Shown: piece after piece, positions 1 through 6,080 of the stretch
Numbering within the stretch: position 1 is the first letter of the stretch
Layout of the letters: each line of letters opens with the position of its first letter
Source: a virus
Taxonomy: Duplodnaviria; Heunggongvirae; Uroviricota; Caudoviricetes
Length of the DNA stretch: 6,080 nt
Direction: 5' to 3' (one strand)
Virus record (IMG/VR): IMGVR_UViG_2713896775_000008
Translations under genes and position numbers: made by a program
Notes under the pieces: generated by a model
Told to the model about the DNA's origin: nothing
Seen by the model: the letters and a program-made list of their open reading frames with translations, nothing else
The model's database searches: none

Positions 1-87
1 ATTTCTGATGCTGAATCAATGATGTCTGCCATCTTCCATTAATCCCTGAATTGTTGGTTAATACGCTTGGGGGTAAATGCGAGCAAT

Positions 88-108
88 AAAAAAGGAGCCT
101 GTAGCTCC
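88..108 (-). terminator. putative Rho-independent terminator for the leftward small-ORF transcript
   Basis: On the minus strand a GGAGC-TACAG-GCTCC stem-loop (plus coords 94-108) is followed directly by TTTTTTATT (plus-strand A-run 88-93), 23 nt downstream of the stop of the 131-346 ORF. The stem is short (5 bp, 6 with a G-U pair). Confidence 0.45.
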
Positions 109-130
109 CTGATAATTTTGCTTTTCATGT

Positions 131-346
131 TCATCGTTCCTTAAAGACGCCGTTTAACATGCCGATTGCCAGGCTTAAATGAGTCGGTGTGAATCCCATC
201 AGCGTTACCGTTTCGCGGTGCTTCTTCAGTACGCTACGGCAAATGTCATCGACGTTTTTATCCGGAAACTGCTGTCTGGCTTTTTTGATTTCAGAATTAG
301 CCTGACGGGCAATGCTGCGAAGGGCGTTTTCTTGCTGAGGTGTCAT
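131..346 (-). CDS. small hypothetical prophage protein (71 aa from MTPQQENALRSIARQ...)
   Basis: Open frame on the minus strand ending in TGA at 131-133. I chose the ATG at 346 (GGGG about 9 nt upstream); the ORF track gives an alternative start at 412 (93 aa), only 10 nt after the upstream ORF stop but with no Shine-Dalgarno. Size, orientation and pairing with the 63-aa ORF resemble the small proteins of the lambda exo-xis region, but I cannot verify homology without a search. Confidence 0.45.
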   Translation of the reverse strand: MTPQQENALRSIARQANSEIKKARQQFPDKNVDDICRSVLKKHRETVTLMGFTPTHLSLAIGMLNGVFKER

Positions 347-422
347 TGAACAAGCCCCATGTCGGCAAGCATAAGCACACAGAATATGAAGCCCGCTGCC
401 AGAAAAATGCATTCAGTGGTTG

Positions 423-614
423 TCATACCTGGTCTCTCTCATCTGCTTCTGCTTTCGCCACCATCATTTCCAGCTTTTGTGAAAGGGATGCGGCTAACGT
501 ATGAAATTCTTCGTCTGTTTCTACTGGTATTGGCACAAACCTGACTCCAATTTGAGCGAGGCTATGTGCCATCTCGATACACGTTCTTAACTCAACAGGA
601 GATGCTTTGTGCAT
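423..614 (-). CDS. small hypothetical prophage protein (63 aa, MHKASPVELRTCIEMAHSLAQIG...)
   Basis: Minus-strand ORF of 63 aa with a G-rich stretch (GGGGGG) 4 nt upstream of the ATG, transcribed in tandem with the 131-346 ORF. It is acidic and helical-looking. Possibly a lambda orf63-like exo-xis region protein; unverified. Confidence 0.5.
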   Translation of the reverse strand: MHKASPVELRTCIEMAHSLAQIGVRFVPIPVETDEEFHTLAASLSQKLEMMVAKAEADERDQV

Positions 615-732
615 ACAGCCCCCCGTTTATTATTTATCTCCTCAGCCAGCCGCTGTGCTTTCAGGGGATTTCTGATAACAGAAAGGCCGGGAAATACCCA
701 GCCTCGCTTTGTAACGGAGTAGACGAAAGTGA

Positions 733-957
733 TCGCACCTACCGGAAACAACGCGCGGCGCTCTTTACTCGTTCGTCTATAACGTGGGCGCAGGCAATTT
801 CAGAACATCTACTCTTCTTCGCAAAATAAACCAGGGCGATATCAAGGGCGCATGTGACCAGCTACGTCGCTGGGCATACGCTGGCGGTAAGCAATGGAAA
901 GGCCTGATGACTCGTCGTGAGATTGAGCGTGAGGTCTGTTTGTGGGGGCAACAATGA
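733..957 (+). pseudogene. endolysin (phage lysozyme) 3' remnant, 5' two-thirds missing
   Basis: The frame reads [74 protein letters not shown], which matches from memory the C-terminal ~75 aa of P21-type lambdoid endolysins. An in-frame TGA lies at 730-732 and there is no start or lysozyme-like sequence upstream. The stop TGA (955-957) overlaps the Rz start in ATGA, the classical R-Rz junction. Confidence 0.75.
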
Positions 958-1418
958 GCAGGGTAACCGCGATTATCTCCGCTCTGGTTATCTGCATCAT
1001 CGTCTGCCTGTCATGGGCTGTTAATCATTACCGTGATAACGCCATTACCTACAAAGCCCAGCGCGACAAAAATGCCAGAGAACTGAAGCTGGCGAACGCG
1101 GCAATTACTGACATGCAGATGCGTCAGCGTGATGTTGCTGCGCTCGATGCAAAATACACGAAGGAGTTAGCTGATGCGAAAGCTGAAAATGATGCTCTGC
1201 GTGATGATGTTGCCGCTGGTCGTCGTCGGTTGCACATCAAAGCAGTCTGTCAGTCAGTGCGTGAAGCCACCACCGCCTCCGGCGTGGATAATGCAGCCTC
1301 CCCCCGACTGGCAGACACCGCTGAACGGGATTATTTCACCCTCCGGGAACGACTGGTAATGATGCAGGCCCAACTTGAAGGTGCTCAGCAATACATAACC
1401 GAGCAGTGTTTAAAGTAA
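954..1418 (+). CDS. Rz: Rz i-spanin (inner-membrane spanin subunit)
   Basis: 154-aa product [60 protein letters not shown]..., near-identical over most of its length to lambda Rz as I recall it. It has an N-terminal transmembrane segment and a coiled-coil periplasmic domain. The ATG at 954 overlaps the endolysin remnant stop. Confidence 0.9.
1174..1359 (+). CDS. Rz1: Rz1 o-spanin (outer-membrane lipoprotein), nested in the +1 frame of Rz
   Basis: 61-aa product [61 protein letters not shown] with a lipobox (VVVGC) and proline-rich mature region. A strong AAGGAG Shine-Dalgarno lies at 1161-1166, 7 nt before the ATG. It is wholly embedded in Rz, as in lambda, and corresponds to rzoR-type genes of Rac-like prophages. 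Confidence 0.85.
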
Positions 1419-1439
1419 AATCTTAACTACAATATGATT

Positions 1440-1540
1440 CATTTTGATGATTGTTTCATAAGGAACAGTGAAGTAAGATCTAAGAGGAGTTAAATTTTAT
1501 ACAGTATAATCATAATATTGCAGCAAGGTGGTTATAATTG
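1440..1540 (+). promoter_or_regulatory. AT-rich putative promoter region upstream of trkG
   Basis: AT-rich intergenic tract with two TATAAT hexamers (1505-1510 and 1533-1538) and an AAGGTGG Shine-Dalgarno at 1525-1531. I could not pair either -10 hexamer with a good -35 at 16-18 bp, so the exact promoter is not defined. Confidence 0.3.
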
Positions 1541-1555
1541 AAAGAATATTTAGAT

Positions 1556-3013
1556 ATGAATACATCTCATGTAAGAGTTGTTACTCATATGTGTGGGTTC
1601 CTGGTTTGGCTCTATAGTCTTTCAATGTTGCCACCAATGGTTGTAGCATTGTTTTATAAAGAAAAAAGCCTGTTCGTTTTCTTTATAACTTTCGTTATAT
1701 TTTTTTGCATTGGTGGCGGAGCGTGGTATACAACTAAGAAATCTGGCATTCAATTACGTACCCGTGATGGGTTTATTATAATTGTAATGTTTTGGATTTT
1801 GTTTTCTGTTATTAGTGCATTCCCTTTATGGATTGACTCAGAACTTAATTTAACGTTCATTGATGCTCTGTTTGAAGGGGTTTCTGGAATAACAACAACA
1901 GGAGCAACTGTAATTGATGATGTTAGTTCATTACCTCGGGCATATTTGTACTATCGGTCACAGTTAAATTTTATAGGTGGTTTAGGAGTTATTGTTCTGG
2001 CGGTTGCTGTATTGCCATTATTGGGTATTGGTGGTACAAAGCTTTATCAGTCAGAAATGCCGGGGCCATTTAAGGATGACAAACTCACTCCCCGCCTGGC
2101 CGATACGTCACGGACACTGTGGATAACTTATTCTTTATTAGGTATTGCTTGTATTGTCTGTTATAGACTTGCAGGAATGCCTTTGTTTGATGCTATTTGT
2201 CACGGGATTTCCACAGTTTCGCTTGGTGGTTTCTCAACTCATAGCGAGAGTATCGGATATTTTAATAACTATTTGGTTGAGCTGGTGGCTGGTTCTTTTT
2301 CCCTGCTATCGGCTTTCAACTTCACTCTTTGGTATATTGTTATTAGCAGGAAAACGATAAAACCTTTAATCAGAGATATTGAACTTCGTTTCTTTCTGTT
2401 AATAGCCTTAGGGGTGATCATTGTTACCTCTTTCCAGGTCTGGCATATAGGTATGTATGACTTGCATGGAAGTTTTATTCATTCGTTTTTTCTTGCCAGC
2501 TCCATGCTCACTGATAATGGTTTAGCTACGCAGGATTATGCAAACTGGCCCACGCACACGATAGTGTTTTTGCTGTCGTCAAGTTTCTTTGGGGGATGTA
2601 TAGGTTCAACTTGTGGTGGAATTAAGTCACTTCGATTTCTTATACTTTTCAAACAAAGCAAACACGAGATAAATCAGCTTTCTCATCCCAGAGCGTTGTT
2701 GAGTGTAAATGTAGGAGGGAAGATAGTTACAGATCGTGTAATGAGGTCTGTATGGAGTTTCTTTTTTCTTTATACTCTCTTCACGGTGTTTTTTATACTG
2801 GTGTTAAATGGTATGGGATATGATTTTCTTACATCATTTGCAACAGTGGCTGCATGTATTAATAATATGGGATTAGGTTTTGGGGCTACTGCATCGTCAT
2901 TCGGAGTGCTTAATGACATTGCAAAATATTTAATGTGCATAGCTATGATTCTTGGTCGCCTTGAAATTTATCCTGTTATTATATTGTTTTCAGGTTTTTT
3001 TTGGCGCTCCTAA
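1556..3013 (+). CDS. trkG: Trk-system K+ uptake protein TrkG (TrkH/KtrB family membrane transporter)
   Basis: 485-aa polytopic membrane protein starting MNTSHVRVVTHMCGFLVWLYSLSMLPP..., with repeated glycine-containing selectivity-filter-like segments typical of TrkH-family proteins (e.g. TTTGATV, LGVIVLAVAVLPLLGIGG). It matches E. coli TrkG, which is known to reside in the Rac prophage. GC content is markedly lower than the flanks. An alternative TTG start at 1538 sits 6 nt after the AAGGTGG Shine-Dalgarno and would add 6 aa (MKEYLD). Confidence 0.93.
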   Translation: MNTSHVRVVTHMCGFLVWLYSLSMLPPMVVALFYKEKSLFVFFITFVIFFCIGGGAWYTTKKSGIQLRTRDGFIIIVMFWILFSVISAFPLWIDSELNLTFIDALFEGVSGITTTGATVIDDVSSLPRAYLYYRSQLNFIGGLGVIVLAVAVLPLLGIGGTKLYQSEMPGPFKDDKLTPRLADTSRTLWITYSLLGIACIVCYRLAGMPLFDAICHGISTVSLGGFSTHSESIGYFNNYLVELVAGSFSLLSAFNFTLWYIVISRKTIKPLIRDIELRFFLLIALGVIIVTSFQVWHIGMYDLHGSFIHSFFLASSMLTDNGLATQDYANWPTHTIVFLLSSSFFGGCIGSTCGGIKSLRFLILFKQSKHEINQLSHPRALLSVNVGGKIVTDRVMRSVWSFFFLYTLFTVFFILVLNGMGYDFLTSFATVAACINNMGLGFGATASSFGVLNDIAKYLMCIAMILGRLEIYPVIILFSGFFWRS

Positions 3014-3099
3014 TATATGGCTGATTTATAATTGTGAGTTTAATATTATATTGACTCACTCATTGATCCAATACCTAACTTTACCAGCAACACCTCCGC

Positions 3100-3134
3100 C
3101 CCCAGTAGCACTGGCTGCTGGGGTGCGTTTTATT
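3100..3134 (+). terminator. putative terminator downstream of trkG
   Basis: Imperfect stem CCCCAGTAGC (3100-3109) / GCTGCTGGGG (3114-3123) with loop ACTG and one mismatch, followed after TGCG by TTTTATT (3128-3134). The U-tract is not directly adjacent to the stem. Confidence 0.4.
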
Positions 3135-3150
3135 CATAAAGCAAGGCTGT

Positions 3151-3582
3151 ATGAGCGAGAAATTAAAGATAGTCTATCGCCCATTACAAGAATTGTCACC
3201 GTATGCGCACAACGCCAGGACGCACAGTACTGAGCAGGTGGCACAACTGGTAGAAAGTATTAAGCAATTCGGCTGGACTAATCCGGTGCTGATTGACGAA
3301 AAGGGCGAAATTATTGCGGGTCACGGTCGTGTTATGGCGGCTGAAATGCTCAAAATGGATTCTGTTCCGGTCATTGTTCTGTCTGGCCTGACGGATGAGC
3401 AGAAAAAGGCGTACCGCCTGGCAGATAATCGCCTACCGATGAATGCTGGCTGGGATGAAGATCTGTTGCGGATGGAGCTGTCGGACCTAATCAATGCTGA
3501 TTTTGATGTCTCCCTGACAGGCTTCGGCCCGACAGAAATTGATGAACTGTTGACGGATGTTTTGCCCGGTATCGGGCCTTAA
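3151..3582 (+). CDS. ParB-like nuclease-domain protein (ParB N-terminal/sulfiredoxin fold), possibly a truncated ParB-methyltransferase
   Basis: 143-aa ORF with AAGG 4 nt upstream of the ATG. The N-terminus (KIVYRPLQELSPYAHNARTHS...GEIIAGHGRVMAA) carries the hallmark ParB N-terminal domain motifs seen in standalone ParB-like proteins and in phage ParB-DNA methyltransferase fusions. It ends where the methyltransferase domain would start in such fusions. Confidence 0.75.
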   Translation: MSEKLKIVYRPLQELSPYAHNARTHSTEQVAQLVESIKQFGWTNPVLIDEKGEIIAGHGRVMAAEMLKMDSVPVIVLSGLTDEQKKAYRLADNRLPMNAGWDEDLLRMELSDLINADFDVSLTGFGPTEIDELLTDVLPGIGP

Positions 3583-3585
3583 TTT

Positions 3586-4113
3586 TTACTCTGGTTTTTG
3601 TGGCCATTCAGGATTTGCCGTATCCACACGGCTGACCAGAACACTGTAGCGTTCCCATGCTTCCAGTCGTGTGCGTTCCTCGTCTGTTGCCATATTCAGC
3701 CTGACAGCGCGTTCCAGCGGTTGGATGACTGATTCAGCTTCGGAAAGCAATGCGGCCTTTTGTGATTCGGCCTGTTGTTGTTGCTCGTCTGCCGTATAAA
3801 TCCGTTTAACCACAGCTCCGTCCCTAAACATCCACTTACTGGAATCATCAGCGCAGCGGTTGGCTGTAATATCTGGAACCTCAACGACGCTATAACCTTC
3901 AGGGTTAAGCGTGGAGGCATCTTTGGTGATGGCGACAATAATATTATTTGCATCGTAAACAATCTTTATTGTGTCTGGCTGAAAGTTTTTCACTTCCTCA
4001 TACCAGTTTTTTCCGTCTTCGGACCATAACCAGATAACATCAAAATTCTTTGTTAGCTGATATTGTTCTTTTGTTTTTGGATTTCCAGACTTAATATTTT
4101 TTAAATGCTGCAT
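3586..4113 (-). CDS. tfa: phage tail fibre assembly protein (Tfa chaperone)
   Basis: 175-aa minus-strand ORF. Its C-terminal region ([30 protein letters not shown]) matches the conserved C-terminus of lambda/e14/Rac Tfa proteins as I recall them. An AGGTG Shine-Dalgarno sits 6 nt upstream of the ATG, and the gene starts 3 nt after the tail-fibre cassette stop, the usual stf-tfa coupling. Confidence 0.88.
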
Positions 4114-4116
4114 AAA

Positions 4117-5121
4117 TTACACCTGTACGACGTTATACCATGTGCCATTGATGTATTTTTGTATTGGTCTGAATACTGCCGGATCATCGCCATCAACTGC
4201 ACCGATAATGCCAAGCCCCGTAATTGCATGACCTGATTTCTCATACATCACGCCTTTTTGCATAGTCTGAACAACACGTGTACCAAGTCGGACATCTCTC
4301 ACATAACGTGAGTCAAAATTACCATAATTGCCGGGAATAACTTGCGCACCGCAAAGCCAGTTGCCATTGTTGTCCATGTACGCCTGACCATCGGTGCCAT
4401 TGGCTGTCCTTGAGTTATTAATCATGTAGATGCCAAATTGCTTATTCCCCAGTCCACCAATCATAAATTTGCGATCAGCGTGGTCCTGACGAAGTAATGC
4501 CTGCGCACCATCGGTGGATACCGCATTGCGTCCCAAAATAACATTCTGGTCACGCATATGAATCCACATGCCGGTACTACTGTTAATTGCAAAACGGTTT
4601 GCAAATATATCCCCTGTAACATCAAGACCATGCCCCATGCTTATCCGACCAGTTCTGAGATTAAGCGTAAAGGGGCGTAGTGGCCCTATATCACCATTTT
4701 CTCCCTCATTCTCTCGTGTAGGGATGATATGCAGGCATTCTTCAGAACGACGAAAAATAGCACCAAAAGATGAATTAAATATCCTCAGTGCATTGACTGT
4801 CGATATTTTTACTTCACTGCTGAAAAGGGCTTTAACAAGGACAGACAAAGCATCCCATTTAAGAGTCATCAGGTCTTTTGTTGTGGTGCTCTGGCGGCTT
4901 CTCCATTTGAAATATTCATTGCCGTTGTCGCCTGTTTCAAACCACATGTATGAATCAGTGTCGCTGTCGGCATTATTTTTAAAACCAATCTTTGCCCAGT
5001 CAGTATTTCTAATCCAGGCAAGGATTGAGTCGTTTTCAAAAGTAAGCCCACCGGACAAGGTATCGCCATTCTTTTGCACGGCGTTCCTGGCCCTGTTTAC
5101 CGTTTCCTGTAAACCGAGGTT
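4117..5121 (-). CDS. stf: tail fibre C-terminal (receptor-binding) variable cassette, partial and start-less
   Basis: Minus-strand open frame of about 334 codons with tail-fibre-like composition (Gly/Asn/Thr-rich, ...GDTLSGGLTFENDSILAWIRN...GTWYNVVQV), immediately followed by tfa. The frame is open from just after an in-frame TAA at 5122-5124 inside the crossover site. It has no ATG or Shine-Dalgarno; the ORF-track start at 5079 is an internal GTG. This is the expected structure of the silent variable half of an invertible tail-fibre segment. Confidence 0.78.
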   Translation of the reverse strand, partial: NLGLQETVNRARNAVQKNGDTLSGGLTFENDSILAWIRNTDWAKIGFKNNADSDTDSYMWFETGDNGNEYFKWRSRQSTTTKDLMTLKWDALSVLVKALFSSEVKISTVNALRIFNSSFGAIFRRSEECLHIIPTRENEGENGDIGPLRPFTLNLRTGRISMGHGLDVTGDIFANRFAINSSTGMWIHMRDQNVILGRNAVSTDGAQALLRQDHADRKFMIGGLGNKQFGIYMINNSRTANGTDGQAYMDNNGNWLCGAQVIPGNYGNFDSRYVRDVRLGTRVVQTMQKGVMYEKSGHAITGLGIIGAVDGDDPAVFRPIQKYINGTWYNVVQV

Positions 5122-5129
5122 TTAGATAA
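5104..5129. other. gix/pix/cix-type 26-bp crossover site for a serine DNA invertase
   Basis: TTCCTGTAAACC-GA-GGTTTTAGATAA: two 12-bp half-sites in imperfect inverted symmetry around a central GA dinucleotide. From memory it differs from the phage Mu gix site at about one position. It lies 55 bp upstream of the invertase start and at the 5' boundary of the tail-fibre cassette. Confidence 0.75.
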
Positions 5130-5183
5130 TGGCGGTTTCTGGCCTGCATGGCATGATTTGTGCTTTTGGACGGGAGATTCAGC

Positions 5184-5292
5184 GTGCTGATTGGCTATGT
5201 AAGGGTATCAACAAATGACCAGAATACAGACCTGCAACGAAACGCTCTTGTTTGTGCAGGATGTGAACAAATATTTGAAGATAAATTAAGCG
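5184..5292 (+). pseudogene. pin: Gin/Pin/Cin/Hin-family serine DNA invertase, N-terminal 37 codons only (interrupted by IS26)
   Basis: The frame from GTG 5184 reads [37 protein letters not shown], the diagnostic serine-recombinase N-terminus with catalytic Ser in the YVRVSTxDQ motif, matching Pin/Gin as I recall them. The reading frame runs straight into the IS26 inverted repeat at 5293. Alternative in-frame starts are GTG 5160 and TTG 5166. Confidence 0.85.
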
Positions 5293-5306
5293 GGCACTGT
5301 TGCAAA
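5293..5306 (+). repeat. IS26 left terminal inverted repeat (14 bp)
   Basis: Exact GGCACTGTTGCAAA. The 8 bp immediately outside (ATTAAGCG, 5285-5292) would be the target-site duplication if this was a simple insertion, but the right flank is not in the window. Confidence 0.85.
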
Positions 5307-5355
5307 TAGTCGGTGGTGATAAACTTATCATCCCCTTTTGCTGATGGAGCTGCAC

Positions 5356-6060
5356 ATGAACCCATTCAAAGGCCGGCATTTTCAGCGTGACATCATTCTG
5401 TGGGCCGTACGCTGGTACTGCAAATACGGCATCAGTTACCGTGAGCTGCAGGAGATGCTGGCTGAACGCGGAGTGAATGTCGATCACTCCACGATTTACC
5501 GCTGGGTTCAGCGTTATGCGCCTGAAATGGAAAAACGGCTGCGCTGGTACTGGCGTAACCCTTCCGATCTTTGCCCGTGGCACATGGATGAAACCTACGT
5601 GAAGGTCAATGGCCGCTGGGCGTATCTGTACCGGGCCGTCGACAGCCGGGGCCGCACTGTCGATTTTTATCTCTCCTCCCGTCGTAACAGCAAAGCTGCA
5701 TACCGGTTTCTGGGTAAAATCCTCAACAACGTGAAGAAGTGGCAGATCCCGCGATTCATCAACACGGATAAAGCGCCCGCCTATGGTCGCGCGCTTGCTC
5801 TGCTCAAACGCGAAGGCCGGTGCCCGTCTGACGTTGAACACCGACAGATTAAGTACCGGAACAACGTGATTGAATGCGATCATGGCAAACTGAAACGGAT
5901 AATCGGCGCCACGCTGGGATTTAAATCCATGAAGACGGCTTACGCCACCATCAAAGGTATTGAGGTGATGCGTGCACTACGCAAAGGCCAGGCCTCAGCA
6001 TTTTATTATGGTGATCCCCTGGGCGAAATGCGCCTGGTAAGCAGAGTTTTTGAAATGTAA
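5356..6060 (+). CDS. tnpA: IS26 transposase Tnp26 (DDE transposase, IS6 family)
   Basis: 234-aa ORF MNPFKGRHFQRDIILWAVRWYCKYGISYRELQEMLAERGVNVDHSTIYRWVQRYAPEMEKRLRW...LVSRVFEM, recognised as the IS26 transposase. The ORF-track start at 5338 adds 6 unlikely residues; the ATG at 5356 gives the canonical length. Confidence 0.95.
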   Translation: MNPFKGRHFQRDIILWAVRWYCKYGISYRELQEMLAERGVNVDHSTIYRWVQRYAPEMEKRLRWYWRNPSDLCPWHMDETYVKVNGRWAYLYRAVDSRGRTVDFYLSSRRNSKAAYRFLGKILNNVKKWQIPRFINTDKAPAYGRALALLKREGRCPSDVEHRQIKYRNNVIECDHGKLKRIIGATLGFKSMKTAYATIKGIEVMRALRKGQASAFYYGDPLGEMRLVSRVFEM

Positions 6061-6080
6061 GGCCTTTGAATAAGACAAAA

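Follow-up and report, generated by a model that had tools for sequence, protein, structure and literature searches.

An IS26 copy as the probable recombination boundary between a defunct prophage invertase remnant and plasmid DNA in Escherichia coli

RESULTS

The window (the whole 6,080-bp stretch of tailed-phage DNA that was analysed) ends on its right within a copy of IS26. With high confidence this copy was deduced to be a recombination boundary and not a clean insertion, joining the defunct gin/pin remnant of a decayed prophage of the lambda attachment site (att-lambda) to plasmid DNA. The flank on its right is conserved and older, the flank on its left is unique, no target duplication surrounds it, and no reciprocal product was found among 5,426 complete genomes; together these features fit IS26 replicative transposition. 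The features of the window are collected in Table 1.

Table 1. Positions of genes, sites, and the insertion sequence in the window
Feature	Position	Strand	Basis or remark
DUF1317 early-left gene	587-751	-	Overlaps rrrD'
rrrD', lysozyme gene truncated N-terminally	739-957		
Rz gene (rzpD)	954-1418		Embedded Rz1 lipoprotein ORF at 1174-1359
trkG, full-length TrkG potassium transporter	1556-3013 (as annotated)		Pfam TrkH, 8.9e-144; as in the Rac prophage
ParB-N, ynaK-like gene	3151-3586 region		Abuts U' at 3582/3586
U'-type tail fibre assembly gene	3586-4113	-	Pfam Caudo_TAP, 4.8e-37
S'v-type variable C-terminal tail-fibre segment	4117-5118	-	Pfam Gp34_trimer, 4.5e-11; pseudogene
gix/pix-type 26-bp crossover site, TTCCTGTAAACCGAGGTTTTAGATAA	5104-5129	+	Sole match in the window at ≤3 mismatches
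5' fragment of Gin/Pin-type serine DNA invertase gene	5184-5292	+	Pfam Resolvase N-terminal domain, 6e-8
Homologue of the Fis-dependent recombinational enhancer	5205-5268		Fis-site homologues at 5205-5220 and 5253-5268; alignment with Salmonella hin
Target octamer, ATTAAGCG	5285-5292		Adjoins IS26 left end; no duplicate at the other end
IS26, first 788 of 820 bp	5293-6080	+	Left inverted repeat at 5293-5306; tnp26 at 5356-6060

The IS26 element and its flanks

The initial annotation had named the element as IS26, and this was borne out by 100% nucleotide identity over 788 bp, the element length of 820 bp, the terminal repeats, and the presence of Tnp26. At least 5,000 plasmid records were found to carry IS26 with all 788 of these bases identical. 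The bases also form positions 1-788 of a complete 820-bp copy in the chromosome of E. coli AREA_C483 (NZ_CP123310.1), which holds the entire 6,080-bp window as an exact substring and has a copy of the inverted repeat at the end of the element. Since the window holds 788 of the 820 bp, IS26 ends at the window-equivalent position 6112, 32 bp past the window, and the right inverted repeat, which had been predicted at about this distance, was found there in NZ_CP123310.1. The left inverted repeat (14 bp, GGCACTGTTGCAAA) occurs once in the window, at 5293. The transposase ORF (234 aa) matched Pfam DDE_Tnp_IS240 (2.4e-48) and is annotated as the IS26 transposase WP_001067855.1.

An 8-bp target-site duplication was absent around this copy, the left flank being ATTAAGCG and the right flank TTCAACAG; the latter was read directly in three loci (L001, L002, and L014). 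A matching 8-bp duplication was likewise found for 0 of the ~25 IS26 copies examined in these loci. Most IS26 copies are without a target duplication (He et al. 2015, PMC4471558), so its absence here is no argument against the identity of the element, while it does argue against simple insertion. The initial annotation had proposed looking beyond the right end for a direct repeat of the octamer and for the rest of the invertase. In place of the repeat TTCAACAG was found, and in place of the invertase a tnpA fragment followed by repA, and from the lack of both it was deduced that the structure is not that of a simple insertion.

Records sharing the junction

The junction between the truncated invertase gene (pin') and IS26 was base-identical in 12 complete E. 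coli records, comprising four chromosomes (AREA_C483, TC24, LR536431, and 1218KP) and eight plasmids (the IncF plasmid pABWA45_1 of 145 kb, six plasmids of 303 kb, and one of 454 kb). In every one of these records a complete IS26 leads through TTCAACAG into an N-terminally truncated Tn3-family tnpA (1,944 bp) and then repA, with the next 2.2 kb in common to 12 of 12 and 3.2 kb in common across IS26. In the three records whose annotation was inspected, repA is followed by parDE and parG, with further IS26 copies nearby; IS26 is abundant throughout, with 8-19 matching places per junction-bearing record. The E. coli carrying the junction come from wastewater, cattle, and humans in several countries.

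It had been suggested that the copy might mark an IS26-driven rearrangement or an adjacent resistance region. The rearrangement was substantiated, as the DNA beyond the element is plasmid DNA (tnpA, repA, parDE, and further IS26 copies). The resistance region was not, as the annotation of the ~11-20 kb on the right (the length varying from record to record) contains no resistance gene.

IncA plasmids of Citrobacter freundii and Klebsiella quasipneumoniae were also found to carry the same unit of IS26, TTCAACAG, and tnpA, without pin and with CCTTTTCG and CGGAATTT as the left flanks of IS26. Since the unit occurs with other left flanks, the right flank is the older side of the junction, and since the IncA plasmids differ on both outer sides of the unit, it was concluded that the unit travels or recombines as a module. 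On the IncA plasmids the unit extends 1,983 bp to the transposon end (loci L012 and L013, 8335-11137). The reciprocal junction, in which an IS26 end adjoins ATTAAGCG and the remaining part of pin, GAATAAGGACAGG, was searched for with chimeric queries in either orientation and was seen in none of the 5,426 complete genomes.

The invertase fragment, crossover site, and enhancer

The invertase frame opens with a GTG start at 5184, and 109 nt (36 codons plus 1 nt) remain up to IS26. The codon for Gly37 is restored by the first two G residues of IS26, after which the frame reads HCCK and stops. The initial annotation had placed the cut after about 37 codons. The frame does run into the IS26 repeat at 5293 as described, the exact count being 36 codons and 1 nt that read as 37 residues. 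The YVRVSTNDQ catalytic motif is kept, residues 1-37 agree at every position with Mu Gin (PDB 4M6F, 193 aa), and the 109 nt are 100% identical to the 5' end of SfMu gin. With ~37 of 193 residues (19%) remaining, this is a fragment and not a domain. The C-terminal helix-turn-helix DNA-binding domain is absent: the frame ends in IS26, nothing invertase-like was found beyond, and the domain is missing in the IS26-free allele too. To say that the gene was "decapitated" is therefore the wrong word, since it is the N-terminal head with the catalytic serine that stays and the body that is missing. The automated PGAP annotation already has an incomplete recombinase beside the IS26 transposase.

The crossover site is identical to the gin-proximal site of SfMu and aligns with Salmonella hixL. 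A second site was not found at ≤6 mismatches, either in the window or in the surrounding loci of 11-45 kb that were searched; the same search in intact SfMu, used as a positive control, returned both sites, inverted and ~3.05 kb apart. With one crossover site, and with Sc, Sv, U, and the second site absent, the segment cannot invert.

For the enhancer, Salmonella hin and hixL were found in genomes by means of a peptide-derived degenerate pattern and were then aligned with the window. The hin enhancer spans 65 bp, with a Fis site at each end and the AT-rich stretches ATTTA and TAATG between them, ~100 bp from hixL (PMC3798978). The starts of the two Fis-site homologues are 48 bp apart in the window and also in hin. 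They lie 101 and 149 bp past the first base of the crossover site in the window, compared with 111 and 159 bp past hixL in hin. The enhancer homologue is also 100% identical to SfMu gin. By homology, positions 5205-5268 are therefore taken as an intact enhancer homologue in the 5' part of the invertase gene, with two putative Fis sites. A literature search with the hin Fis-site strings returned unrelated papers only. IS26 begins 24 bp beyond the distal Fis-site block, leaving the enhancer homologue whole and on the side of the crossover site. The idea that the insertion may have split or displaced the enhancer was thus set aside, as the homologue lies wholly upstream of IS26.

The prophage remnant in the window

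The gene order of the remnant, as found in IS26-free relatives, is int-xis...rrrD'-rzpD-trkG-ynaK-U'-S'v-gix-pin'. Many genomes match the window only from position 740 on, and an internal deletion near 739/740 seems to have deprived the prophage of its immunity, replication, Q, and holin regions. The U' region showed ~90% DNA identity to the Sv'/U' region of SfMu, D108, and P7, and positions 3586-5292 as a whole matched the U'/S'v half of the invertible segment at ~90% identity in SfMu and D108 and at ~89% in P7. The S'v segment is homologous to the "Sv prime" of P7 and is labelled by PGAP as "phage tail protein, missing N-terminus", the constant N-terminal part for fusion being absent. The surviving U' and S'v are half of a Mu G-segment-like invertible region.

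Because the ynaK homologue directly abuts U', nothing is left of the constant tail-fibre part, of the first variable cassette and its assembly gene, of the left crossover site, or of any tail gene. The stop codon of U', which lies on the opposite strand, is 3 bp beyond the end of the ynaK-like gene. This boundary is a deletion scar that marks the loss of all tail genes together with the left half of the segment. At the same boundary PK8568 keeps ~1 kb extra, including a fragment of the other assembly gene. A hybrid promoter directed outward from the left end of IS26 into the antisense S'v/U' genes was also considered; a consensus scan of positions 5000-5420 returned no promoter-like site, and the idea was dropped.

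The locus before IS26

The state of the locus before IS26 was deduced from relatives that have no IS26 at this position. Of these, E2 is 100% identical to the window over positions 1-5292, while 027_SK3, ABW_S38, and I4 are 99.9-100% identical over the same range, each with the E2-type continuation (100% identical) directly abutting. In E2 the invertase ORF is 64 aa long and ends at codon 65, which reads TGA where CGA is expected by comparison with Gin. About 12 codons past this stop, a deletion fuses the invertase to the 3' end of a tail-fibre-assembly gene (tfa). The E2 remnant is located at att-lambda, between ybhC and the genes DGC (diguanylate cyclase)-ybhB-bioA, with the tfa fragment preceding DGC. 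The stump protein (WP_001378636.1) is present in many other genomes, and because the stump is found in more than one prophage context, the allele was concluded to be old. The prophage beside ydfK-uspF-ompN in PK8568 (locus L008, 8276-9281) has both the stump and, ~200 bp away, a divergent pinR gene that is intact (196 aa).

Judged from these sequences, the switch was already frozen before IS26, with its recombinase, partner site, and target gene lost. The initial annotation had held that the insertion locked the switch. This was contradicted by the relatives: in the IS26-free allele, otherwise identical, the invertase is already reduced to a stump of 64 codons and the partner site and the constant part are gone, so that IS26 is not what locked it, and the loss of the tail genes likewise predates the element. 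IS26 cost the dead ORF no more than 27 further codons and left both the enhancer homologue and the crossover site untouched.

Genomic location and the attachment core

In the junction copies inspected, the gene to the left of int is not ybhC; a Dps-family gene, an ArsR regulator, an FAD oxidoreductase, a methyltransferase, IS5, and IS5708 were found there. A block of ~37 kb is common to the AREA_C483 chromosome, the 303-kb plasmid of 0H26, and, in large part, pABWA45_1. It consists of the prophage fragment and plasmid maintenance genes, is bounded by insertion sequences, and is assembled on a plasmid in 8 records and within a chromosome in 4. The description of the element's host as a chromosomal prophage, as first given, is accordingly doubtful, since the remnant lies off its native att-lambda site in plasmid-type mosaic DNA. 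The chromosomes of the AH04 type were also considered as a 0H chromosome combined with its 303-kb plasmid, a combination that would have directly evidenced integration, and this was rejected on size, the 0H26 chromosome being 4.99 Mb and that of AH04 4.89 Mb.

The native and plasmid-type copies cease to be homologous precisely at the lambda att core, where GCTTTTTTATACTAA precedes GTTGGCATT in the former and AAATTTTTATAATAA precedes GTTGGCATT in the latter. The break falls at ~3013-3036 of locus L001, left of int and beside the Dps-family gene, and corresponds to 1916-1930 of the native copy (L009); int and xis are intact. This break on the left suggests that the remnant may have been moved by Int-mediated recombination with a secondary attachment site. 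In PLSDB, no plasmid was found to carry the right-hand part of the remnant (the rest of pin, tfa', DGC, and attR), nor was a right-hand junction matching the att break found there. A joint reading, in which the remnant would have reached plasmids by lambda Int at a secondary att site and would then have been trimmed by IS26, with the pin stump next to the enhancer DNA as a preferred IS26 target in view of the two junctions 41 bp apart in opposite orientations, is put forward tentatively and is itself rather doubtful.

A second IS26 junction near the stump

In S43, AH02, AH04, and CT01 an IS26 copy in the opposite orientation was found 41 bp further into the stump, after CTTTAAAG. In the S43 (L004) and AH04 (L005) loci this second junction is at 14326-15153. 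In S43 it adjoins the same Tn3-family tnpA, which is here 840 bp longer; beyond this lies an integrated region of IncHI2 type that contains trh genes. Two junctions only 41 bp apart hint at a more complex, possibly stepwise history. An IS26 hot spot in pin was considered and rejected, as two other IS26 copies near pin-like genes, in AVS0947 and Ec-U4, are located not in pin but within the S' tail-fibre fragment that unrelated prophages carry. With these two excluded, the S43-type second junction alone remains as a further IS26 near pin.

DISCUSSION

Origin of the junction

The proposed mechanism would begin with an IS26 copy that already had the Tn3-family tnpA fragment on its right, and the left end of this copy would have reacted with the octamer ATTAAGCG in the pin stump. 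This could have occurred by cis-deletion within a plasmid or cointegrate, or by fusion of replicons with the far junction lost later. Either route would leave the right flank unchanged, no 8-bp duplication, and a partial gene, which is the pattern observed here. In IS26 replicative transposition, both IS copies lack a flanking duplication, and the leftover partial gene is the tell-tale sign (He et al. 2015, PMC4471558). The end product would be the ~37-kb mosaic block that is now on several plasmids and inside four chromosomes. As a rough estimate, the cis-deletion falls a little short of an even chance, and the replicon fusion with later loss of the far junction is possible, on the unlikely side. 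We infer this order of events from relatives living today, no intermediate having been found.

The same present-day structure would result from a two-step origin, which is a variant of the mechanism above. A simple IS26 insertion at ATTAAGCG, with an 8-bp duplication, would have been followed by recombination with a plasmid IS26 carrying tnpA, whether by RecA-dependent homologous recombination or by the conservative IS26-by-IS26 reaction of Tnp26, so that the right flank was swapped and the replicons were fused. Such a history is made easier by the very numerous IS26 copies in the junction-bearing records, by the IS26-tnpA junction that pre-exists on other plasmids, and by the published preference for IS26-by-IS26 cointegration (PMC4676283). 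It requires one more step, however, and it predicts a surviving junction of IS26, ATTAAGCG, and the rest of pin, for which the count was 0 of 5,426 genomes; it was therefore considered distinctly unlikely. A clean insertion into the working invertase of a chromosomal prophage, locking a functional switch and splitting its enhancer, is what the sequence immediately upstream, with its catalytic motif, crossover site, and alternative tail-fibre cassette, would at first seem to indicate. It was deemed very improbable, given that there is neither a duplication nor any of the gene after IS26, that the identical IS26-free allele is a stump, that the partner site and the constant tail-fibre part are absent, that the enhancer homologue ends 24 bp before IS26, and that the fragment is off its native attachment site.

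Virtually no weight was given to a repeat-induced chimera at the IS26 copy, a case of the sequencing or assembly artefact that the initial annotation had named among the findings that would overturn its reading. IS26 is indeed a high-copy repeat, and the same block is on a plasmid in some assemblies and in the chromosome in others. Nevertheless, 12 complete assemblies, obtained in several countries and from several sources, agree on the junction to the base and have the 3.2 kb in common, and the left side of the junction lies in unique sequence that is independent of repeat resolution.

Significance

The junction in the window is an ordinary IS26 replicative or recombinational junction of an already-understood kind in a pseudogene. 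Since the ORF that was cut was already a pseudogene in a prophage unable to make tails, no phenotype is expected from it. The analysis corrects the tempting inference that an insertion sequence locked the switch. Together, the unique junction of pin' with IS26 and the shared junction of IS26 with tnpA provide a tracer of the ~37-kb block on IncF and 300-450-kb plasmids and in four chromosomes, and the locus is a clean textbook case of an IS26 copy without target duplication. If the joint reading with lambda Int were true, the window junction would mark a minor path for turning prophage cargo into plasmid cargo.

Comparison with known systems

As an element, the IS26 copy (IS6 family) agrees with IS26 as known in its 820-bp length, its 14-bp inverted repeats, and its canonical Tnp26. 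Its junction resembles those that He et al. (2015, PMC4471558) describe for deletion of adjacent DNA and for fusion of replicons, in having no duplication and a partial gene, in a flank that is common with the IS26 of unrelated plasmids, and in the many IS26 copies around it. The mechanism is the same, the difference being that the target here is a prophage invertase pseudogene and not a resistance gene or transposon. A further likeness is seen to the IS26-mediated chromosomal integration of large plasmids such as IncHI2 (for example PMC9019673): in S43 an IncHI2-type trh region is joined to the pin remnant via IS26. That junction differs from the one in the window in lying 41 bp downstream with IS26 in the opposite orientation.

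Among invertible segments, a likeness is seen to the G segment and Gin of Mu-type phages: SfMu has the very same crossover site and first 109 nt of the invertase gene (100% identity), and U'/S'v is ~90% identical to SfMu and D108. Salmonella hin has the same 48-bp Fis-site spacing, with the enhancer 111 bp from the start of the site compared with 101 bp here. In contrast to Mu G/Gin, P1 and P7 C/Cin, e14 P/Pin, and hin, only half a segment is present in the window, namely one site, U', S'v, and 19% of the invertase. The module rrrD-rzpD-trkG-ynaK-tail fibre-invertase is the same as in the Rac- and Qin-type lambdoid remnants with trkG and ynaK. The remnant differs from these in its lambda-type int and xis and in its location, which is att-lambda (between ybhC and bioA) in the IS26-free relatives and plasmid-type DNA in the records that bear the junction.
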